NCBI GenBank assembly: GCA_000165345.1
Contig: CM000434.1
Location: 608,001 to 672,000, forward strand
DNA length: 64,000 nt
Direction: 5' to 3'
Both the position numbers and the translations under genes were made by a program. The notes beneath the pieces were generated by a model. The model did no database searches. It saw nothing but the letters and a program-made list of their open reading frames with translations, and was not told the origin of the DNA. Below, in pieces: positions 2,339 to 52,723 of this stretch (positions are counted from its first letter, which is position 1; each line of letters starts with the position of its first letter).

Positions 2339-5300
2339 ATGAAAAAAAAAGATGAAAAAGAGTTTGTTCCAAGCTGTGGGCATTGCCAAAACTATTTTCT
2401 TTACAAGAGAATAAGATCAATTATAGGAAAAGGTGAAAAGATAAATTTGACAAACTTATTTGAATTTAATTCATCTTCTAGCCAACCAAATGAATCTAAT
2501 CATAACATAGGAGGAAGACTTGTTTATACCAAAAATGGTAACTTTCTATTTCTCCAAGAGAATATTATGAATAAAAGTTCAAATCCAAGATTTGTTTTGA
2601 TACCATGCGAAATTTCTGGGAAATTTAGGTCAAACATAATGCTTAAATGTTGTGAGACAGAATTTTCATTTGTTTCTTGTTGGATAATCATAAGAAATTG
2701 GGCAATTGTGAAAATGAAGACTGGAGAGCCAAGTGCTCCTTTAAGAAGCATCCTGCTTAATAGGCATTTAAACCCCTCTAAGTTTCAGGACGAAAGTACA
2801 ACCTTTAAAGTCTTAAGAAAGAGGCTTTTATGTTTCAGTGCATCAACAGCTTTTTGGATACCATATACTTTTTCTAATGAAGAACATATAGTAAATGGGC
2901 TAAAGGGTATTCAAATTACAGGAATAATTACTCATATATCTACCGTGGTAATGCATAAGGGAAACAATAATATGAGCTCAACAAGTATGATAGTCAATGA
3001 TGAAAAAGCATCAATGATAAGTGGCTCTGAAACAAGTGACTCAGAAGAAATACAATTAAACTCACAGATTAATAAGTTTGGTATAGATGAGATTCTGAGA
3101 CCATCCGAAAATTCAGTGTGTGAATTAAGTTTTTCAATTGTAATAAAATCAATATCAAATAATCAAGAATTTGTAATTTTCTTCCCTGGAGTAAATCTCT
3201 CAATAAATAGATTTGTCCTGGAATGGAGGAATATTTACAGATTTGAAAATGTGATTGCAGGATCTGTATCAATTCATAACTTTGGAGAATCATCAAGAGA
3301 GAAAAAGTGTCTAATAGCTAATAAATGTACGTCAATAGTTGCAGAACCCGTAACTGAAGATATCTCAAGAACAATCTCCGAAACTCCTAAGTTAATTCAA
3401 ATTGAGAAAGTACTTGGATTTGGTGTATATGAAATAAAAACCGACAAAATACCTATTAAACTCTTTCTCCAAAATTCAAATATTCATGAGACATCATTAG
3501 GATGCTCAATTTCAAAAGGTTCAATTTTATGGGTTAGAAATTTTCGTGTAATTACCAAAGAATTTGGAGATCGTTCGCTTCCAATAGGGATTTCAATAGA
3601 ACCTTCATCTGACTGGGGACTAGAAAGACATTCTAAATTCGCATTAGAAAAAGTAACTGCCTTAAAAAAGACAATATGGGAAAACTTACCATTACATATT
3701 CAAACGATCGGTCACGAGTATTTGGAATTTAATGATTTTAATTCAGAAATCCATAACAATCCAGAGATTGTTTTCCATCATCCATGGGATATCAGAAACC
3801 TTTGCTATTTACATTATAGTCTTTATGTAGATTTGTTCAATTTAGTTAGAACTTCAGCAGATAAATCTCAAGTTCTTCCAATATTGCTAGTTCAGATTAT
3901 TTCAAACCAAAAAAGTGGCTCGCCAATTTCAGTTTCCAAGGATTTTGAAATCAAATATCCAGATGGGACAACAACTCCCCAAAATTCTTGCTCGCTCATT
4001 TGTAGTAACTGCTTGCATTTCCAAAATAATATTACTCATCCCAGCCAAACAGTTGAACTTAAATCAAAAGATTCACAACAGTGTCCAATATCTTGCACAG
4101 ATACATTGTTTGGACTCTGGAAAATTGCCTCGATTGAAGAATGGGTAGATTTGATTAAAAGCCTTGAAGTATCACAAAAACTTAGCTTAGGAAATTCATT
4201 TTCCTCTAATATTACTTTATATATTGAATATTTGTATTATATCAGAGGCGATGTCAGAAAACTACCTATATATCAAAAAAATCAAAAGAATGATAAAACT
4301 AGTGATGTCTCGAATAATGTTAATAGCCTCAGATGTTCGTTTATTGCAGAGGAAAGCTTTCCTGTATATATAGGTTCTTTTGGCCATTTTCTAGCTGAAG
4401 TTATCATGGAAAAGGCTTTTGAATCAAATGCTTGGATCTCAAATGTGTATTTCATCAAGACACCTTCCTTATATGACTCAAAAAATAACTATTATCCACT
4501 ATTTATTGATTGTAATTCAGAAGTAAATTTTTTATTCAATTCAAACTGCTCAAAATATTCTTTTGAAAAAAAATTTGTATTTATCAAGAAAGCAATGTTA
4601 AGATTATACAATCAAAGGATTTCGTTTTTTGTCAAAATTTCAGATATTGTATGTATTAATTTTGAAAATTGTTTCCTTAAACCTCCAATTTCACAAGGAA
4701 TTCTTTCAGGAAATCAAATAAGAGGAATTTTATTATTTATTTGCGATAAAGAAATTCAAAGCTCAGTTGAAGGATGCAAGCAGTATTTACATTGTCTCCC
4801 ATTTTTTAAAACATATTCAAAACTTTCTAAATTAGGAATTCAATTTGATAAGAATGAAATAATTGAATCTCAAATAGAAAAGTTTCAAGTACCTCCTAAT
4901 TGGTATTCATTCACAAGTGTTTCAAGGTTTGTGTTAATTCTAGATAGACCAATTTTACAAAATTCTGAAGTTTTGCTATCTGAAATTCAGGAAAAAGAAT
5001 TTTTTGAAGCCATTAATACATTTGATATTGAAAAGATTGAATATTTAATAATTAAAGAACTTGTTTTTCCATCCCAGTTTTCTTCAGATGCTATGAATTT
5101 TGACAAAACTAAATCATATATAGAAATAAAGCTATTGGGTAACAATAACGAATCTATATTATGGCCTGAATGCTTAAAATCCCCATTTTCCTATAAATTT
5201 GAAACCAATATTCAAGCTAATCAGGGTTCCTATACTGTATTTGATATTAAACATTGGACCGAATACTTATTTGAATGGCAGGTTCTTTCAAGGAGAAGTT

Positions 5301-42883: not shown

Positions 42884-43960
42884 TCACTTGTTAATTTCAC
42901 TGTTTAAATGAGAAGCAATAATAGTTTCAAAGTGATCTCTGGCATGTTCTATATTATATAAGGCAGATGCAGAGGTTACGCCTAATTTAACATTAATTAG
43001 ATGATATTTTATAGTAACTTGGTTATTTATTAACTTACTTTTATCGTTGATTACTACTAATATATATGAATTTTGAGTGAATCTTTTGATTATACTAGAG
43101 AAATTAGGGGTTTCCAAGTTTATACCAACAAAATTGGTCTGTGACTTTGCGCAAGTTAGCTTAAATTGCTTACAAATATTGGAAATTCTTTCAAAACGTG
43201 ATCTGTGATGCTTTGAATCTAAAGTATTCGAATTCTCAGCATGGGAAATCACAAGAAATGTAGACTTCTCGAAGAGAACTAATTCCACAGCATTACAAGA
43301 TTCCGCTAAAATCTTGAGATTTTTCTCCAAGAGTCCTACATTTGGTATCAATGCATATACAATTTCGCTCCAAGCTGCAAAAAGAGTTTCATCCCAAATC
43401 GTTGTTGGAAAAACTCTGTAATTCATGTTAGATGCAACCCTTCCTATTTCTCTTTCATAATAGTTTATAGCAGATTCCCTCTCTATTGCTGAAAGCTTAT
43501 CCATCTTGTGAACTAAACAAAATAAATGGGATTTAGGTGAAAGAAGCTTCAAATTCTCCACTGTGCTTTTAAAATAAGCAAAATCTTGTTCAATGTCTTT
43601 TGTTGCGTGCTTGGAAGAGTAGTCCTTTCGAACTTCTAATACATAAATTAATACTTCTGTGCTTCTAAATATATGTTCTCTTTGACTCTCAAAATAATTC
43701 TCCATAAAAATATCCTAAAAAACAGCTAATAAGAAAAACTACCTTGTAATTAATCTTCAAAAACTTACTTGGCCTCCACAATCCCAAAGACTTAACACCA
43801 TATTCCCAAAGAACCTTAAGTGTGAATGCTCTATATTATTTGTTGCTGTTAATCTACTTGTATCTTTTGGAAGATAATTCGCAAAGATTATACTCCTCAT
43901 AGAAGTTTTACCTGCTCCTGCTCGTCCCATTAACAATACTTTCTTTCTATCGGAGTTCAT
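42884..43960 (-). CDS. Rag-family small GTPase (RagA/B / Gtr1-like), two exons: 43769..43960 and 42884..43714, with a 54-bp intron at 43715..43768
   Basis: The track start at 43966 is a GTG; the ATG is the revcomp of cat at 43958-43960 ([26 protein letters not shown]...). Exon 1 ends ...LWDCGGQ|GTAAGT. The acceptor TTTTTTAG|GATATTTTTATGGAGAATTATTTT gives ...[31 protein letters not shown]...CLVHKMD...WDETL. The G1 box, the DxxGQ G3 box and the HKMD G4 box are all present. The second half is a RagA-type roadblock domain. Confidence 0.85.
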
Positions 43961-44231: not shown

Positions 44232-46880
44232 ATGATTCAAATTCCCGAAAAAACTCAGAAAGACTCTTCAATTTATGGCTTAATTGGTGAATTTGACTTT
44301 TTTGGGGCCTCTGATTCAGATTTTGGAGAGCTTGTCCACACTATTGTTGACCAAATTGGAGGAGAAAATACCAATAATGAAAAGTTGTTTGATGTATTAA
44401 AGAAGAAATTAACCATTCTAGATAATGGGACATTAAACTTGTTTGCTCCTACTAAGTCTTCAAAGCCAGATATTAAGGATATTGTTCTACCCGATGAATC
44501 ATATTTTGACTGTAAGTCAAGTCTGAAGAAAGAGTTGAAAAGTATTTGCCAAAATGCTCAAATAGATTCACAGATTTTTCATTCAAAAGATCTTTCCATT
44601 TTAAGGTTTGTCTTTTCCTATCATAAGTTTTTTAACCCTCAAAATGAGACTAGATATCCCCAAGATTATGATTTTTATGTTATTAAGCATCCCAATACTG
44701 ACTTTAATGGATGCAGGACTTTTGCTATCAAGAAGAAACATGGAAAATCCTCTAAACAGGATGAATCTGATAATGAACAACAACTTATTCCAATTAGTTA
44801 TGTGTCATCTGTTGACAATATTACTACAAAATGGGAAAAGGCAGGAAAAAGGATTATTAACTTAATGCAAGCTATTGTTAACATTGTTCCTAGTGATATT
44901 AAGTTATTTATTACTACTATGCAGGATATTTATCCAATAGCTTTTAGAAATTCTTTGGATTCTTATATTTTGTACTCAAAGCTATTATTTCATGGAATTA
45001 AACTAATTCCTTCAACAATGAGTATTTTACTCAGATTTCTCATTAATAAACTCATCTCTTTAGAGTCTGAGATTCATTCCAAAAATCCAAATAACTATAC
45101 TAAAGAAAGGTTCGAAAAATGGAGACAAGAAGAACTTCAGACAGTTGCAATTAAGATCAGGAGAGGAGAATATGCAGACATTAACTCTGCAAAGTCTTAT
45201 ATACAAGATTTGGATGGTCTAAAAGCTCAATTTTCTCAAAGGTTTACAGAGGAAGATATTGATAGAAATGCTCAGGTTATTGATAATGTTATGAAAGGAC
45301 TATTTGATTTTATTTCTGAAGTATATGAAAATGGTTTCCAATATACTAAAATCTTTGTAAACTCTACTGAAACTTCATATTCTACTCAAACCAAAAACTT
45401 GAAAGTTCCCAGCAATGTTTCAAATATTCTCTCAAGTAGTGATTTGGAATCTTCTGCAGTAGAAGATATTGTTGTTTCAGGATATGGAAAGAAAGAGGAG
45501 TTGTTATACAAACAATTTGTTGATCTTGAAAGCACAATTTTGAATATATTTGAAACTCAAATTCTTGCAATAGAAAGTTGTCAATTCGTTAATTATATTC
45601 CTATATATTTGGTTTGTCATTGCGATTCTTGGTGCGAGAAATTCCTTCAAATTATCTTTAAGAAGTTGTTCAATCCCCATGAGACACTTATCATCAGAGA
45701 ATCCTCAGTAGATTACATTGTATTCTTTGTAACAAACTACCAAATAGTTTGCAACTTTAAATTTTACACACCTTGTATTAAATATTTAATGCAGTTTCTT
45801 CACGACTTTGTTGCTCATTGGAGTATTGAAAAATCTGATCAGAACTTAAGCTCCCAAGAAATTCTTCATTCAAATAAAAGATCAGGATTTAAAAGAAGTT
45901 TTGGAGGTGATTCTCAGAAACATTCACATCTTACTTTAAGAAATTTGTTCGGTTTATATTGTCATGTTGTATTTTCTCTTTGTAAATTTGTTTCAGTTAT
46001 AATAAATGCCATTTTAAGCGAAAATATCCAAGATAGTTCTTTTGAAGATTTATGCTTTCTCATTGACTCTTTACTAAACATGAACCGAGGTTTTATTCCA
46101 TTTATATTATGTGGAGATTTATCTCCAATTAATAATATAGACCCAAGTACTCTTACAATTTTTCTAAAATCTGTTATAATACTGATTTACAAGGTGATTT
46201 CTATTCAAAAGGAGAAATTAAGCATCTCAAAATATTATGGTGCTATTAAGCTTATTTCTGAACTCTTGAATTCCAATAGTAACAAGGAGATAGTTAAAGT
46301 TGAATCAAAGTTATTCTTAGATAAATTATGGCTATGGCATTCTGGAAAATACGTAAACAAATTCAAAACTTCCAACTCTAATTTAATAGAAGACCAAGAT
46401 ATTTCATGCCATATTTTAGAGCTCCTAAAGATGATAGAAGATGAAATGGAAATTCATTCTGAAGAAGAGCCAGAACCTCCAAATCAAGAAATCGATATCC
46501 CAGAAAAAAAATATGGTGAAATGGAGTCATCTATTCTTCCAGAACAATCCCTTTGGGAGTATGTATGGGGAGATGTTCCAGTTTCACATGAAGAATTGGA
46601 ACAAGAGCTTTATGTGACAAAAAACAAAATGTATAAAGAAGATTTGGACAAACAGCTCGACTACTCAAGGGAAGAGTTGAATGGACAAGATGAGGACAAA
46701 GAACCCAAAAGAGGCCTATGCTCAAAGAAACCAAGTTCTTCAGGAATGTCATTATTAGACACTCTTTTATCCTCGGATGCTTTCAAACGTGGAGAAGCTA
46801 TTCTACATAGTTATCAACGAAAACATTCCCCTTCAGGGAAAAAGATGAATAAATTTTCTAGGAAATCTAGGCTATTTTAG
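44232..46880 (+). CDS. Hypothetical protein (882 aa), probably alpha-helical (HEAT/ARM-like); no function assigned
   Basis: ATG at 44232. It is a long open frame whose C-terminal part is acidic and coiled-coil-like. I could not place it in a family by eye. Confidence 0.5.
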   Translation: MIQIPEKTQKDSSIYGLIGEFDFFGASDSDFGELVHTIVDQIGGENTNNEKLFDVLKKKLTILDNGTLNLFAPTKSSKPDIKDIVLPDESYFDCKSSLKKELKSICQNAQIDSQIFHSKDLSILRFVFSYHKFFNPQNETRYPQDYDFYVIKHPNTDFNGCRTFAIKKKHGKSSKQDESDNEQQLIPISYVSSVDNITTKWEKAGKRIINLMQAIVNIVPSDIKLFITTMQDIYPIAFRNSLDSYILYSKLLFHGIKLIPSTMSILLRFLINKLISLESEIHSKNPNNYTKERFEKWRQEELQTVAIKIRRGEYADINSAKSYIQDLDGLKAQFSQRFTEEDIDRNAQVIDNVMKGLFDFISEVYENGFQYTKIFVNSTETSYSTQTKNLKVPSNVSNILSSSDLESSAVEDIVVSGYGKKEELLYKQFVDLESTILNIFETQILAIESCQFVNYIPIYLVCHCDSWCEKFLQIIFKKLFNPHETLIIRESSVDYIVFFVTNYQIVCNFKFYTPCIKYLMQFLHDFVAHWSIEKSDQNLSSQEILHSNKRSGFKRSFGGDSQKHSHLTLRNLFGLYCHVVFSLCKFVSVIINAILSENIQDSSFEDLCFLIDSLLNMNRGFIPFILCGDLSPINNIDPSTLTIFLKSVIILIYKVISIQKEKLSISKYYGAIKLISELLNSNSNKEIVKVESKLFLDKLWLWHSGKYVNKFKTSNSNLIEDQDISCHILELLKMIEDEMEIHSEEEPEPPNQEIDIPEKKYGEMESSILPEQSLWEYVWGDVPVSHEELEQELYVTKNKMYKEDLDKQLDYSREELNGQDEDKEPKRGLCSKKPSSSGMSLLDTLLSSDAFKRGEAILHSYQRKHSPSGKKMNKFSRKSRLF

Positions 46881-46979
46881 ATAAAATAATATGACTAATT
46901 CTATATATTTGTTGTTAATATTTGTAAGTTGGAATATTTTTTTATTTTCTTAATTTTTAATGTGTGAATTAAATTTTAA

Positions 46980-46990
46980 TTTGGCGCCAT
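46980..46990. promoter_or_regulatory. E2F-like box TTTGGCGCCAT about 50 bp upstream of the METTL13-like gene ATG
   Basis: Read directly at 46980-46990. Confidence 0.45.
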
Positions 46991-47035
46991 TTGTCAAACC
47001 AATAATTATTATTATTCTTAGGAAATTATTAGGAA

Positions 47036-49129
47036 ATGGAGCTACTACCAAATTCAGTGGAAGATTTTACAAGTAGTGAATACTGGAGTGAGTTCTTTAA
47101 GAAGTATGGAGGCGAAAGCAACCGAGCATTTGAATGGTATGGAGACTTTGAGGTTCTGAGGGACCTTTTGATACAATCTTTACGTAATAGTGGCAGGTCA
47201 GAACTAGACAATAAGAGGATTTTGCATGTAGGATGTGGAAATTCCACTCTTCCAGCTAAATTGTATGATGAAGGTTTTACAGATATTACAAACATTGACT
47301 TTTCAAGTCAGATTATTGAGTTAATGAGAGAAAAAAATAAGTCCAGGGAAGGATTAAAATGGGTTTGTATGGATATTGAGAAGGACTTTGGTGATTACGT
47401 TGAGAAGGCGGAAAATTTGGGAAAATTTGATACGATTATAGACAAAGGGTTTTTGGATGCTTATTTATCAGACAGTACATCTGAGAATGGACTTTCTTCA
47501 AGAAAAAAATCAACTGATTTTTTGAATTCATCCATTAATCTTTTAGCTCCAAATGGAAGGTATATTTTGATTACTCTAGGCCAGGAGTATGTAGCTAAAG
47601 CTTTAACTATGGGGTTATATAATAAAGGTCTTGAGGTTATTGTTGAGCCTTTAGTTGGAATTAAAGATTCAAAGTTTCTTCCATATTATATTGAGATTAT
47701 CAATAAAAGTGATTTTCAGAATTTTGAGAAGTCATTTTTTAGATTCAGAGGATCTGGGACTGAGGAAATTTGTAGTGCTGAAGGTCAGTGTATTTGGACT
47801 TTAGCAAAAAGACTTAAGGAGCTTTCTGCTATGTTTTGGAATAACAAATATATTGGTGATTTTATGCCAGGAGAAATAAAGGAATACCAGCTTAATATAA
47901 AGGAATCCAAGAATAGCCTTTTTATCACTGTATATGATACAATGAGCAAAGAAAAGAAAAGAAAGCTTACAGTAGGTCTTCTCGTACCTTTAGGAGAGGA
48001 GCAGGATTGGCTTTATTCTACAAGAAAGGGGTTTGAAGAAATCTGTAGTCAAGCCAAGTGTAAGAGATTAATTGTGATTTCAAGATTCTATTCAGATTCA
48101 GAGGAAGCTTTGAAAGTAAGTGAACAGGAAATCCTGGATGAAATTTCGAATAATATCTCTCCTTTAGCTTTAAAAGGTTCTAACAGATTTCCTATTCTAA
48201 CTGTAGGCGGAGACAAGAATCTAGACAAAAAATGTATTTATAGCTGTGATTCAAAGTACTCTAAGGAAATACTTGTTTATGATATTCAAGAGTCTGGTAT
48301 TGAGAAGAGACAAATGATTTTCAGGTCAAGCCCAAGACTTATTCAGTCTGAAGTAGTAATTCGAAGAAATGATTCGAAAACAATTGAAATTGACTATTTA
48401 AGTGGGTTTTCAAATTATTATGTAGGAGTTATATTGGTTTCAAGTCTTATTTTGGATACTAAAAATCAAGACAAAACGAGAAACGCTCTCATTTTAGGCT
48501 TAGGAGGAGGAATCTTAGCTTCAATATTGAGAAAGTTTTATTCAAAGCCTAAACTCCATATTTCTGCAGTTGAAATTGATGAGAATGTAATGAATGTAGC
48601 GAAAAATTACTTTGGATTTTCTGAAAGTGAAACCAAAGTTATTATTGGAGATGCACTGGACTATGTTAATAACAATTATTTAGAGATTAAAGACTCTCTG
48701 GATTATATTATTGTAGATATTAACTCTGGAAATGTGAATGATTCTCTTATGTGTCCAGGAGTAGAGTTTCTTTCTAAAGGGTTTATAGAGAAGCTAATTG
48801 TTTCTTTAACAAAAGATGGTTGTATTGTTTATAACGTTTCATGCAGAGACTCTAATAGAAGAGAAGAGCTTTTTAATGAATTTAGAGATTTGTTGAATAA
48901 AATGGAAGAGAAAACTAATTCCAAAAGAATGATTCTTCAGGCAGTGGAGACAGGAGATGATGAGATTAATGAACTATGGATAATCAAAAGAGAAACAAAT
49001 GATAATATTGAAAAAGTTAGAAACTTTATAATAGAAAATGAATTATTTATAGGTAGTCAGGAAAATACATCTTTAGAGACATATGATAAAAAGGATCTCT
49101 GGATTAAGAGGTTCTCAAATCTTAAGTAG
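47036..49129 (+). CDS. METTL13 (eEF1A-KNMT)-like protein with two methyltransferase domains: an N-terminal class I SAM-MTase and a C-terminal spermidine-synthase-like MTase
   Basis: ATG at 47036. The N-terminus MELLPNSVEDFTSSEYWSEFFKKY...AFEWYGDFEVLRDLL...ILHVGCGNSTLPAKLYDEGFTDITNIDFS closely follows METTL13's N-terminal domain (W..FF......FEWYG.....L......LV.GCGNS.L...LYD.G...I.NID.S). The C-terminal half carries a second motif I, ALILGLGGGILASIL, and motif II, IIVDINSG. Confidence 0.75.
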   Translation: MELLPNSVEDFTSSEYWSEFFKKYGGESNRAFEWYGDFEVLRDLLIQSLRNSGRSELDNKRILHVGCGNSTLPAKLYDEGFTDITNIDFSSQIIELMREKNKSREGLKWVCMDIEKDFGDYVEKAENLGKFDTIIDKGFLDAYLSDSTSENGLSSRKKSTDFLNSSINLLAPNGRYILITLGQEYVAKALTMGLYNKGLEVIVEPLVGIKDSKFLPYYIEIINKSDFQNFEKSFFRFRGSGTEEICSAEGQCIWTLAKRLKELSAMFWNNKYIGDFMPGEIKEYQLNIKESKNSLFITVYDTMSKEKKRKLTVGLLVPLGEEQDWLYSTRKGFEEICSQAKCKRLIVISRFYSDSEEALKVSEQEILDEISNNISPLALKGSNRFPILTVGGDKNLDKKCIYSCDSKYSKEILVYDIQESGIEKRQMIFRSSPRLIQSEVVIRRNDSKTIEIDYLSGFSNYYVGVILVSSLILDTKNQDKTRNALILGLGGGILASILRKFYSKPKLHISAVEIDENVMNVAKNYFGFSESETKVIIGDALDYVNNNYLEIKDSLDYIIVDINSGNVNDSLMCPGVEFLSKGFIEKLIVSLTKDGCIVYNVSCRDSNRREELFNEFRDLLNKMEEKTNSKRMILQAVETGDDEINELWIIKRETNDNIEKVRNFIIENELFIGSQENTSLETYDKKDLWIKRFSNLK

Positions 49130-49148
49130 ATAGGAGTCAGAATTTGAC

Positions 49149-49799
49149 TCATTGTTTACTGCTTGATAAGTATAATTGAATATGATATATTTTTCTCTGT
49201 TCATCCCAATATGTTTGAGTTCTTTGCTTAATTAGCTCTATATTTGGAATTCTTATTCCAATAGTATTATAAGGTTCAGCTCCCACAAATAAGTATTGGT
49301 ATTTCGGGTTAGGTTTTTCAACCTTTTGTTCCCAACAAGACATGATTCTGTAACCAGGAATATGATCCTCAAGAATTTCTTGGAAATAGAATTTGCAATA
49401 TACACAGTTAGTACCAGTTGACCCTTCTCTATGCTTGGAGACTTTATATTTTGGTTGTCCTATCCTTGGAGCTCTTGGCTTAGCTTGCTCTGGATTTTCA
49501 GCCTGAGGTTTCACAACAGCCTTCAAATTTTTCTCTTTGGATGCTCTATATGCCAGATTTGTTTGGTGTTTCCTTCCTTGAGTATGAGACAAATATGATC
49601 CCTCATTTGTGTGAATTGTAGAACAAAGTCTGCATTCAACTTGTCCAAGGTGGTTCTTCATATAGTAAGGATCCTTAGAAAGATCTATGGACTCTAGAGC
49701 AAGCCTCCTAAGTCTCTCTCTCCTCTCAATTGCAATATCCTGGGAGCTCGCCAGAGCTCCACTACCCGTTTTGTGGCCTCCTCTGTTTTCATAGTCCAT
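49149..49799 (-). CDS. SF3A2: Splicing factor 3A subunit 2 (SF3a66/Prp11), with a matrin-type C2H2 zinc finger
   Basis: The product MDYENRGGHKTGSGALASSQDIAIERRERLRRLALESIDLSKDPYYMKNHLGQVECRLCSTIHTNEGSYLSHTQGRKHQTNLAYRA... carries the conserved SF3A2 N-terminus and the CxxC...H...H U1-type finger. The conserved C-terminal core runs to ...VEKPNPKYQYL. By my own count the ATG falls 1 nt from the track's boundary, so I kept the track coordinates. Confidence 0.85.
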   Translation of the reverse strand: MDYENRGGHKTGSGALASSQDIAIERRERLRRLALESIDLSKDPYYMKNHLGQVECRLCSTIHTNEGSYLSHTQGRKHQTNLAYRASKEKNLKAVVKPQAENPEQAKPRAPRIGQPKYKVSKHREGSTGTNCVYCKFYFQEILEDHIPGYRIMSCWEQKVEKPNPKYQYLFVGAEPYNTIGIRIPNIELIKQRTQTYWDEQRKIYHIQLYLSSSKQ

Positions 49800-49848
49800 T
49801 TTCTCTTTTAAGTAGAGTCATTTTCTATTAGTTTTTTTTCACAGCACC

Positions 49849-49870
49849 TTGGCGCCAATTGCGCCAAAAT
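49849..49870. promoter_or_regulatory. Double E2F-like element cTTGGCGCCAATTGCGCCAAAA, 50-70 bp upstream of the SF3A2 ATG (minus strand)
   Basis: Read directly at 49849-49870. Confidence 0.5.
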
Positions 49871-50092
49871 AATATGCAAGTTCACGAGCATGAATTTGCT
49901 GAAATAAAAGGAAGAAAAAAAATGGTTGAAAAATGAATACATATTCATCTGTTTAGGTTAATATACAATAATCAAGGTCTTAATTAGGGTAACTCTGAAA
50001 GTTGTACTTATTCAATTTTTGGAGTTTTGTAAATTAGATTACTATTTTTAGATTTAGGAAAGCTTGGTCAGCTATTACTTAATCAAGAAAAT

Positions 50093-51521
50093 ATGGTCAG
50101 AGTTCAGTTGTTTTACAATTCCTCATGGGAACGAGTCTTTTTTTACAGTGATGAGCAAGAAAACCTTTTTGATAATGAGCAGAAGTGGGTATTTAGAGAA
50201 ATGAAACCATTAGAAGAAAATTTGGACTGGCATACAATCGAGTTGGAAACAAAAAGGTATGTTGTTTTTTGAAGAATAGGTCTGAAAAGTTAACTTTCTA
50301 CTATTTAGAGCTTTTTTGGAGTTTGTTTTGTGTAATACTGAGAAAACAGAATGGGACAATCCTCCTAGTTCATATGGTAGAAAAAATTACTTTATTAGTA
50401 TCAAAGATGCAGAGAGGGAGTCAGGAAAAGATGCCAAAAAAGGTCTAAAATTTTGTCTAAAGGATGGAAACTTAAGCCATATAGTTTCAAGACCTCCAAT
50501 TGCAATTGTAACAGACTTGGATGGAACTTTGATAGGACATGACGAGTATTTGAAGATGTTCAATGAGATTTGGATTAGACAGCATATGTTCAATAATTCC
50601 AAATTAATCTACTCAACTGGTAGGAACCTCAAAGATTTCCTCCTTGCAGCAAAGCAATTCAATCTTCTTAGACCTGACTATGCAATTTGCGGGGTAGGAA
50701 CAGAAATATATGAATTTCCAAATAAAGAAATGAATCTTGAGACATTTTGTCAAAGGTTATCCAATACTATAGGAAGGAATGTAACAAAAGAGGAATTATT
50801 TTCCTTGTTGAGATTCCAGGACATGGGGGAGCGTGTTGAAACCAAGGAGGGAGACGAGGAGAAAGTGACCAAAGATGTGAATCCCATGTTCCCAAGATGG
50901 TGCAAAAGCAGGTTATTTGCTTGGCCTGTGGATAAGTGGTTGGAAATCATAAGAAAAACATTCAACAGAGATGAATTGAAAAAAGAAATTCAAGAAAATC
51001 TGAACAAGATCGGTCTAGAATATTACATTAATGGAAACAACTTTCATGATCCATTTCGTCTATCAGTATCCATCAAAACAGAATATGCTTTGAAAGTGTA
51101 TGAGGAAATACAAATAAACAAAAAAAGCTATAGGTTCGCCATTAGCGGACAAGGAGCATGGAAATATTTAGATGTGCTTCCTGATAAAGGTGGAAAGCAC
51201 TTATCTATAATATTTCTCCAAGATGAGATTCTAGGAAATTCTATCCCTTTGGAAAGGTTTCTGGTATGCGGAGACTCTGGAAATGACGCTCATATGTTTA
51301 CAATCGAGACATGCAAAAACTGTTGTGTCGGAAATGCTCAACAGGATCTCAAGGATTTCTTATTAGGAGGTTGCCTAGTGAACAGTGATGAGCCTGAGTC
51401 AAGAAAAGTCTTGAGTAGCCAGAGTGAGCTCCTATGTAGAATTATGGCTTGCCAGAATCTGAAGCCTCCAAAAAAAGTAAGTTTTACTCCAAAAATGTCA
51501 TTTTGTATTTCACTCAATTGA
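50093..51521 (+). CDS. HAD-superfamily phosphatase of the sucrose-6F-phosphate phosphohydrolase (SPP/S6PP) family, two exons: 50093..50256 and 50309..51521, with a 52-bp intron
   Basis: The track ORF begins at a TTG (50316) and has no ATG before the HAD motif I, so a 5' exon is required. ATG at 50093 ... AAAAAG|GTATGT; acceptor CTATTTAG|AGC, in frame (..ETKR|AFLEFVLC..). HAD motif I is IAIVTDLDGTLIGHD, motif II is IYSTGRNLKDF...AICGVGTEIYEF (it follows plant SPP [VF]STGRS........K....P.I.I.SVGTEI), and motif IV is GDSGNDAHMF. Confidence 0.65.
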
Positions 51522-51785
51522 ATCTGAACTTGATTAGGTTTTCATTTCTATGTTGCCAAATGCTGGCGGAATTATTCAAGCATTAATACATAATGATTTT
51601 ATCACCTATAATATCGACAGTCCAAGCAGTTGATTAGACTTTGGTTAAGTCGGAAACTTGGGTAGCTTTAAAGCCAGATACAGGTCCCGATTCGAATGAG
51701 GGGCCCAAGAAGACGGGGGATCGGAAATATTGAGTATATCTCTGATACTCAACTCCTTTCAAATGATAAGTATATCAGACACTCA

Positions 51786-51832
51786 GCTATCTTTCTTTCT
51801 CTTTATCTCTCTCTTTCTTTTCTCTATAATAG
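51786..51832. repeat. Polypyrimidine (CT-rich) tract in a convergent 3' intergenic region
   Basis: ctatctttctttctctttatctctctctttcttttctct, read directly. Confidence 0.5.
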
Positions 51833-51940
51833 TTGAAATCCTTCCTATCATTACATCCAATATATTCTAAACGGCTACTATCCGAATATGGGAATAGATA
51901 GCTAATAATTCGCTACCGAGTCTCATATATAAGGCAAAGA

Positions 51941-52723
51941 CTAATAGAAAACTTGGTCTCTTCCAATTGGTAGTTGGGAGTCGTACTTAACCATCTTGAA
52001 GTTTCTTTCTTCTTCGTTAATTTCTTTTACGAGCTGTCTTTTAAGGATATTTGTTGAGTCAATTGGGATTGACATAGAGTTTTCTTGATTATCCACAAAT
52101 GATTCGCAAATCAAGGGAATGTTGGATCTAAAAGAAATAGGGAATACTTCTTTAAAGTGTTCATTATTTGAAGAGTCATTGAGATGGTTGCGCCCAAATT
52201 TCTCAATAAAACTATTACAATTGCCACCTTTGTGTAAGAGATCATCACTCTTTTCTAAATTAATGCCTGAACTATTCTTGAAACTTCGATCGAGATCACT
52301 CATATCTACCTCAGAGTCAGAAGTTCCATCATCGTCTTCATCTTCAGTTAAAAAGCTTCCTTCACTTGTGGATTCGCAGTCATCATAATAGGTCCAAGAC
52401 GCACCTCCAATAGCTTCATTCTGTGTAGAGACGGGGTTTGGAGAGGTTACAATAATGTAACTAGATGATCTATTATGAATTTGAGATATAGAAAGGTTTT
52501 CTTGGGAATTTTCATAAGGAATTACTAATAGATCTTCGGTTCTAGTTTGTATTGGCGGAAGCTCGTCAACAATTCTAACATCACAAATATCCAGGATTGT
52601 AGAGAGAGATAGATTAGAAAGTGAGGATATATCATACTTTTCCGATCCAAGGGATTCATTAATTAGAATAATTGACTGCTTTATCTCCTCCAATACTTGG
52701 TTGATTACAGGTTCCGATTCCAT
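51941..52723 (-). CDS. Hypothetical acidic protein (260 aa)
   Basis: ATG is the revcomp of cat at 52721-52723. The product is Asp/Glu/Ser-rich with no recognisable domain. Confidence 0.4.
   Translation of the reverse strand: MESEPVINQVLEEIKQSIILINESLGSEKYDISSLSNLSLSTILDICDVRIVDELPPIQTRTEDLLVIPYENSQENLSISQIHNRSSSYIIVTSPNPVSTQNEAIGGASWTYYDDCESTSEGSFLTEDEDDDGTSDSEVDMSDLDRSFKNSSGINLEKSDDLLHKGGNCNSFIEKFGRNHLNDSSNNEHFKEVFPISFRSNIPLICESFVDNQENSMSIPIDSTNILKRQLVKEINEEERNFKMVKYDSQLPIGRDQVFY

Follow-up and report, generated by a model that had tools for sequence, protein, structure and literature searches.

Here, we report that a gene of Cryptosporidium parvum, located at positions 50093 to 51633 on the forward strand of a 64,000-nucleotide window (the whole stretch of DNA analysed, presumably part of chromosome 6; AT-rich, with 33% GC), is predicted to encode a two-domain protein in which a CBM25-type starch-binding module is fused to an S6PP-type HAD-IIB phosphatase domain. 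On balance, the protein is probably tethered to amylopectin and its substrate is probably a glucan-linked or glucan-derived phosphoester, not sucrose-6F-phosphate; we infer from the sequence that it binds starch, works as a phosphatase and has such a substrate. The exon that lies upstream of the evident open reading frame is what turns a "sucrose-phosphatase-like" enzyme into a predicted starch-binding phosphatase of alveolates that store cytosolic starch. A first-pass annotation of the same DNA had described the genome as apicomplexan-like, which agrees with its source, and a search of the 64-kb window for tRNAs and Rfam families came out empty.

The gene has three exons, all on the forward strand. 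Exon 1 (50093–50256, 164 nt) starts at ATG 50093 and codes for amino acids 1–54 plus two nucleotides of codon 55; exon 2 (50309–51476, 1168 nt) holds the remainder of the CBM25 module together with the HAD core and cap; and exon 3 (51538–51633, 96 nt including the TGA at 51631–51633) codes for a C-terminal helix, VFISMLPNAGGIIQALIHNDF... Intron 1 (50257–50308, 52 bp, GTATGT...TTTAG, phase 2) has its donor AAAAAG/GTATGT at 50256/50257 and its acceptor CTATTTAG/A at 50308/50309, and its GC content is 27%, against 37% in exon 2. Retaining it would bring a stop codon into frame at 50270–50272; excising it places ATG 50093 in frame with the open reading frame at 50316–51521, a 401-amino acid frame which opens at TTG and, as had been remarked before, has no in-frame ATG ahead of the DLDGTL motif. 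Intron 2 (51477–51537, 61 bp) reads GTAAGT...GATTAG. The spliced three-exon product is 475 amino acids long and matches three C. parvum proteins, QOY41168.1, WRK32888.1 and KAL5368159.1, end to end at 100% identity; the first of them was deposited as "sucrose-phosphatase-like HAD hydrolase". The upstream exon and 52-bp intron agree exactly with the first-pass annotation; its description of the exon as "missed" holds for the ORF track, where the exon has no place, but not for the current GenBank models, in which it is present. Its end of the gene at 51521 has to be given up, because the 3' intron was overlooked and exon 3 runs to 51633.

Comparative evidence supports both predicted introns. In Cryptosporidium muris, the orthologue (locus L001) has exons at 643–800, 909–2070 and 2139–2228, and the introns between them (801–908 and 2071–2138) interrupt the coding sequence at the same codon positions and in the same phase as in C. 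parvum. Cryptosporidium felis DNA has the same exon 3, 'VFISSMPNAGGIIQALTHYGF...', placed after a 45-bp intron, GTAAGT...CTAG (L002, 2875–2919), at the position of intron 2, and the deposited 451-amino acid model of that species reads through this intron. Gregarine and dinoflagellate orthologues, which are derived from transcriptomes, are collinear over both junctions, and exon 3 is kept in C. felis, C. muris, gregarines and dinoflagellates alike. By alignment, the exon 3 helix 'NAGGIIQALIHNDF' pairs with 'SHAGAILEAIAHFDF' at the C-terminus of Synechocystis sucrose-phosphatase (SPP); in the AlphaFold 2 (AF2) model, this region has pLDDT values of 93–98 over amino acids 431–460 and a helix at 452–462.

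Several other models of this gene are public. Splicing intron 1 while reading through intron 2 gives 458 amino acids, and KAL3127633.1 and WKS78395.1, both 458 amino acids long, correspond by length to the model with only the 5' intron spliced. A model of 321 amino acids exists for C. parvum (CAD98573.1) and for Cryptosporidium hominis (XP_666542.1); judged from its length, it begins with the first ATG past motif I and so is without the nucleophile. XP_627632.1 is a partial model of 411 amino acids, and another public model is the bare 401-amino acid ORF.

The N-terminal part of the protein, amino acids 1–113 (50093–50483, split by intron 1), is a predicted CBM25-type starch-binding module, and exon 1 codes for most of it by profile comparison, namely the first five CBM25 strands with Y8, W12, Y18, W32 and W46. 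Residues 1–113 are kept in every full-length orthologue. A 30-sequence alignment of this region (A2) has Y8, W12, W32, W46, D71, N81, Y82 and G108 invariant; in the larger count of 47 sequences, W46 is tryptophan in 38. Compared with the PDB, the profile of these 30 N-termini matched 2c3v, the CBM25 of Bacillus halodurans G-6 amylase, at E=8.5e-9, the Paenibacillus beta/alpha-amylase CBM25 pair 2laa/2lab at ~3e-6 and Amy13K of Eubacterium rectale (6b15) at 6e-5. Run against 1.8 billion representatives, it found 336 proteins at E<=1e-3, and the strongest of those outside the family were GH31 alpha-glucosidases and GH13 amylases with several Pfam CBM_25 repeats. Another homologue search with alignment A2 returned a single 66-amino acid fragment. 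The C. parvum N-terminus on its own had no CBM match in Pfam, only chance matches to Poxvirus_B22R_N and RimM, and when single orthologue N-termini were used, four of seven matched CBM_25 or CBM53 at 18–26 bits, just short of the Pfam thresholds; for CBM_25 (PF03423), the scores were 18–23 bits and the cutoff is 27.3. Such sub-threshold scores of single sequences would explain why the precomputed annotation holds PF08282 and PF05116 only; the proposed CBM25 membership is based on the family profile together with the predicted structure.

The ligand positions point in the same direction. Maltotetraose is bound in BhCBM25 by W34, W74, H26, N76 and D81 (PMC4625611), and these align with W32, W70, Y18, N72 and N81 of the parasite protein. 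W32 is found in all 42 orthologues in which the position is present, W70 in 46 of 47, N72 in 41 of 47 and N81 in 47 of 47, while the Y18 position is His in 33 orthologues and Tyr in five. On this alignment, the family keeps all five predicted ligand positions or changes them conservatively. The structural model agrees with a CBM25 fold, as it contains the beta-sandwich, the aromatic platform and the polar ligand residues.

The catalytic part is a predicted S6PP-type HAD-IIB phosphatase domain (amino acids 117–467, 50493–51606, split by intron 2), recognized by PF05116, Foldseek and the AF2 model. HAD-IIB phosphatases have the motifs DxDxT, S/T, K and GDxxxD and, between the second and third of these, a C2B alpha/beta cap. 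All four motifs and the cap are found here, so that the sequence falls within HAD subfamily IIB, and the match is far past chance level for the predicted motifs. Motif I, D124-L-D126-G-T128 (50514–50528), would provide the nucleophile and the general acid/base and aligns with D9/D11 of SPP; motif II is S157-T158-G159-R160-N161 (50613–50627), with T158/G159 equivalent to SPP T41/G42 and N161 in place of Ser44; the motif III lysine, K351 (51195–51197), corresponds to SPP Lys163 by alignment; and motif IV, G376-D-S-G-N-D381 (51270–51287), would hold the Mg2+ ligands. Motifs I, II and IV, like GVGTEI at amino acids 183–188, are present as the first-pass annotation had described them. D124, D126, T128, K351 and G376–D381, the last including the remaining catalytic residues D377 and D381, are invariant in 47 of 47 orthologues, and T158 is Thr in 39 and Ser in seven of the 47. 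This near-invariance of the catalytic residues makes the protein look like an active Mg2+-dependent phosphatase. An enlarged apicomplexan insert of the C2B cap, at about amino acids 191–262, is visible in the model.

Within HAD-IIB, the closest family is S6PP. PF05116 matches amino acids 119–404 with 129.6 bits (E=2e-37, cutoff 20.3), ~78 bits ahead of the Hydrolase_3/Cof family PF08282 (51.2 bits), and among NCBIfam models TIGR01485 (SPP_plant-cyano) scores best, with TIGR01484 also matching. Synechocystis SPP, 1s2o, is the top solved structure both by sequence (E=5.5e-11) and in a Foldseek search with the full-length AF2 model (pLDDT 91.1, pTM 0.92), where it was found at E=3.2e-14 and TMt 0.77 and Cof-type enzymes at ~1e-9. 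The first-pass annotation had proposed this family and had named generic Cof-type best matches as the outcome that would speak against it; in Pfam and in Foldseek alike, S6PP is ahead.

Cryptosporidium oocysts and sporozoites have amylopectin as their energy reserve, and starch mobilisation in plants and Toxoplasma is under the control of reversible glucan phosphorylation. Apicomplexan amylopectin is located in the cytosol (PMC2064834), and the present protein is expected to be cytosolic as well, since there is no N-terminal extension ahead of strand 1. According to a recent proteome paper, C. parvum expresses an R1/glucan water dikinase (GWD) (PMC13599311), and dedicated searches reported no laforin or SEX4-type glucan phosphatases in Cryptosporidium (PMC2064834, PMC2714694). 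With GWD but neither laforin nor SEX4, Cryptosporidium appears to lack a glucan phosphatase, and the protein could be the missing one. In the mechanism we propose, the CBM25 platform (W32, W70 and Y18, plus N72 and N81) would dock the protein on the alpha-1,4-glucan helices of the amylopectin granule, and the capped HAD domain would split a phosphomonoester via an Asp124 phospho-enzyme intermediate; the substrate may be glucan-bound phosphate put in by the parasite R1/glucan water dikinase, or phospho-malto-oligosaccharides freed during amylopectin breakdown. SPP has yielded crystals with maltose, trehalose and cellobiose, and the glucose part of its substrate sits buried in the cleft (PMC11046441). 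The linker between the two domains is only ~5 residues long and the pTM of the full-length model (0.92) implies a fixed CBM-HAD arrangement; for such a rigid starch-binding fusion, an amylopectin-associated phosphatase is the simplest reading. An amylopectin link had been one of three suggested by the first-pass annotation, and the CBM25 module in exon 1 favours it; the same is not true of trehalose or mannitol.

We have considered whether the protein could be a genuine sucrose-6F-phosphate phosphatase (EC 3.1.3.24) which ends sucrose synthesis and came from the plastid endosymbiont. The best-matching models and structure are indeed those of SPP, and the nearest relatives outside the family are, among the matches listed, cyanobacterial and plant SPPs. 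The TIGR01485 score, however, is 100.1 bits and thus below the equivalog cutoff of 183.65, which places the protein outside the SPP equivalog. In a profile search, family members scored at least 224 bits and the next cyanobacterial or plant SPPs at most 172 bits among the matches listed, a gap of 50 bits. The position of SPP Ser44 (Arabidopsis Ser54), most commonly Ser in canonical SPPs (67%), is Asn in 44 of 47 family members (N161 here), and a Ser-to-Ala change at this residue of Arabidopsis SPP2 was tested as what probably makes SPP1 inactive (PMC5113954). The cap also departs from the conserved motif: the canonical pattern Q..Q.P.K.S becomes G...HDP.R.S, which is a conservation pattern only, the canonical columns Q/Q/K/W become N-or-x/H/R/F, and the family conserves G297, H301, D302, R305 and F273, together with a family-specific W252 in the cap insert. 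A starch-binding module is found in none of the canonical SPPs among the matches listed, and the carbohydrate-pathway abbreviation list of the C. parvum proteome paper names no sucrose enzyme (PMC13599311). We regard a true SPP as improbable, and the earlier remark that the substrate need not be sucrose-6-phosphate is right. Still less probable is a generic Cof-type HAD-IIB sugar phosphatase in which the N-terminal beta-sandwich is a structural appendage without glucan binding: Hydrolase_3 and Cof models do match, and the C. parvum N-terminus alone is without a CBM match in Pfam, but S6PP leads by the ~78 bits given above, 1s2o precedes the Cof structures by five orders of magnitude, and the N-terminal profile, with its five of five ligand positions, finds true CBM_25 proteins.

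A different objection concerns the size of the substrate. C2B-capped HAD phosphatases usually take small soluble substrates, not polymers, which makes direct action on granule-bound phosphate mechanistically uncertain. The substrate might be a soluble small sugar phosphate that has nothing to do with glucan phosphate (another hexosyl-sugar phosphate, glucose-6-phosphate or a compatible-solute precursor), with the CBM25 module localising the enzyme or sensing starch, for which the CBM48 of AMPK beta is a model of starch-status sensing by a CBM. The full C2B cap with its large insert is typical of small-molecule HAD phosphatases, and the strong conservation of the cap motifs within the family hints at a single small ligand of defined kind. 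Disaccharide phosphates are what the S6PP family acts on, with the glucose moiety buried in the cleft (PMC11046441). On the other hand, CBM and HAD are joined tightly and rigidly, and the named apicomplexan and dinoflagellate members strictly inherit both domains together, which suggests a glucan that takes part in the reaction and is more than an address; there is no evident candidate for a soluble substrate or a partner synthase. We consider a small soluble substrate a possibility of some weight, though an unlikely one. A catalytically dead starch-binding scaffold, i.e., a pseudophosphatase, is a formal possibility for CBM-bearing proteins that has no specific support here, and it is barely credible given that all 47 orthologues keep every one of the catalytic HAD residues checked.

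The CBM25-S6PP fusion that underlies the amylopectin-tethered reading is not confined to C. parvum. Among the matches listed, it is common to Cryptosporidium, gregarines (Blabericola, Protomagalhaensia, Selenidium), Eimeria/Cyclospora and dinoflagellates (Polarella, Symbiodinium, Effrenium, Amphidinium), and none of the named members comes from Plasmodium, piroplasms or the Sarcocystidae (Toxoplasma, Neospora). Toxoplasma stores amylopectin, and the lack of a named orthologue from it among the matches listed is an observation that counts against our main reading. The presence of the fusion in both apicomplexans and dinoflagellates indicates that it is at least as old as their common ancestor. 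In a neighbor-joining tree of the HAD domain with 200 bootstraps, the apicomplexan sequences are monophyletic (96%), all CBM-bearing sequences group together weakly (59%), and the SPPs of plants and Closterium form a group at 99%; the CBM-bearing clade falls within neither plants nor cyanobacteria and has no resolved sister. The tree neither favours nor speaks against the endosymbiont-derived or horizontally transferred origin which had been suggested earlier; this gene is absent from the Huang 2004 list of transferred C. parvum genes.

Public databases already contain the gene, with its S6PP-like name and the correct 475-amino acid model. Our literature search turned up no paper that connects Cryptosporidium or apicomplexans with sucrose-phosphatase, or a HAD phosphatase with CBM25 or any other CBM; the CBM25 module and the starch-linked reading appear to be undescribed so far. 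The protein is a concrete candidate for the glucan-phosphatase gap of Cryptosporidium, and a parasite-specific target could follow from it, as no human orthologue is present among the matches listed. If our reading is true, the range of the HAD superfamily would extend to polymer-associated substrates. We put forward only tentatively the wider proposal that these proteins form a third, HAD-based class of alpha-glucan/phospho-malto-oligosaccharide phosphatases, of an origin separate from the cysteine-based laforin and SEX4/LSF2, which may carry out the dephosphorylation of the GWD cycle in Cryptosporidium, gregarines, eimeriid coccidia and dinoflagellates. Laforin has been reported in Eimeria (PMC2714694), where the CBM25-S6PP protein also occurs, and the latter is therefore not simply a laforin replacement.

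Compared with known systems, the protein combines parts that are familiar from elsewhere. With Synechocystis SPP (slr0953, 1S2O), it has in common the HAD-IIB core and alpha/beta cap fold, all four HAD motifs, the GVGTEIY hinge motif and the C-terminal AGGI..A helix; it differs in the added N-terminal CBM25 and in the ~70-amino acid cap insert with W252, and, unlike plant SPP, it is without the S6PP_C domain. The N-terminal module has clear profile and structural similarity to bacterial CBM25 (2C3V, 2LAA/2LAB) and to the CBM53 of plant and algal starch synthase III, and it shares with bacterial CBM25 the two-tryptophan platform and the polar ligand residues. In contrast to the bacterial modules, it is a single intracellular copy with a helix insertion at amino acids 86–99 and Tyr for His26, and in contrast to CBM25/CBM53 systems in general, it is carried by a phosphatase and not by a glycoside hydrolase or glucosyltransferase. 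[quoted passage not shown] The parasite enzyme has no DSP domain with the Cx5R motif, its catalytic domain being HAD, and for this reason it would be at most a functional analogue of laforin, SEX4 and LSF2, not a member of their group: it is predicted to be an Asp-based, capped HAD enzyme where they are Cys-based dual-specificity phosphatases, and its carbohydrate-binding module is of family 25, not 20 or 48.

The order of the genes surrounding the CBM25-S6PP gene is kept between C. parvum (window 44232-52723) and C. felis, in the DNA that carries the orthologous locus (JABXOJ010000033.1; L002). The order runs from a METTL13-like double methyltransferase (47036-49129) through the minus-strand gene SF3A2/Prp11 (49149-49799) and the CBM25-S6PP gene itself to a minus-strand gene (51941-52723) whose 255-260-aa product has no Pfam match, with RRN3 (44232-46880) lying upstream of these genes. 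There is no carbohydrate-related gene among these neighbours.

The 451-aa orthologue deposited for C. felis (P0007) is a model in which the 3' intron, i.e., the one preceding exon 3, is read through. This intron is conserved in C. felis as 45 bp at 2875-2919 of JABXOJ010000033.1, followed by exon 3 at 2920-3030, which encodes 'VFISSMPNAGGIIQALTHYGF...'. To judge from length, the same 3'-intron read-through affects two 458-aa models in GenBank, KAL3127633.1 from C. hominis and WKS78395.1 from Cryptosporidium sp. 43IA8.

Besides CBM25-S6PP, a further gene of the window has a 5' exon that is absent from the ORF track, namely that of a Gtr1/RagA GTPase on the minus strand (42884-43960, ORF plus upstream exon). 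The ORF matching the Pfam profile of this GTPase (42884-43705) aligns only from position 62 onward; the P-loop is found within the peptide of the upstream exon (43960-43769), which includes the stretch ...WDCGGQ. Splicing out the 54-bp intron between them (43768-43715, GTAAGT...TTTTAG) joins the exon and the ORF in frame and yields a 340-aa protein.

In the apicomplexan members of the CBM25-bearing S6PP family, the cap domain carries a large insert, whereas the dinoflagellate members and canonical sucrose-phosphatases are without it. In the C. parvum protein it spans about aa 191-262 (window 50663-50878), is predicted by the AlphaFold model to form three helices (198-209, 215-227 and 238-243), and has its end marked by W252, which is conserved throughout the family. 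This insert may make the substrate cleft larger or act as its gate.

In some dinoflagellate entries (P0050 and P0140; e.g., Effrenium voratum), the CBM25-S6PP unit is preceded by Pumilio (PUF) repeats, an arrangement that could be a genuine fusion or a merged gene model. A set of proteins of about 690 aa (P0066, P0069, P0074, P0079 and others) is mostly metagenomic, with one NCBI entry named Rhodothermales; here the S6PP domain is N-terminal and fused to amylo-alpha-1,6-glucosidase-like or neutral-invertase-like domains (PF06202, PF12899). It is unusual for a sucrose-phosphatase to be paired with an invertase-type hydrolase in one protein.
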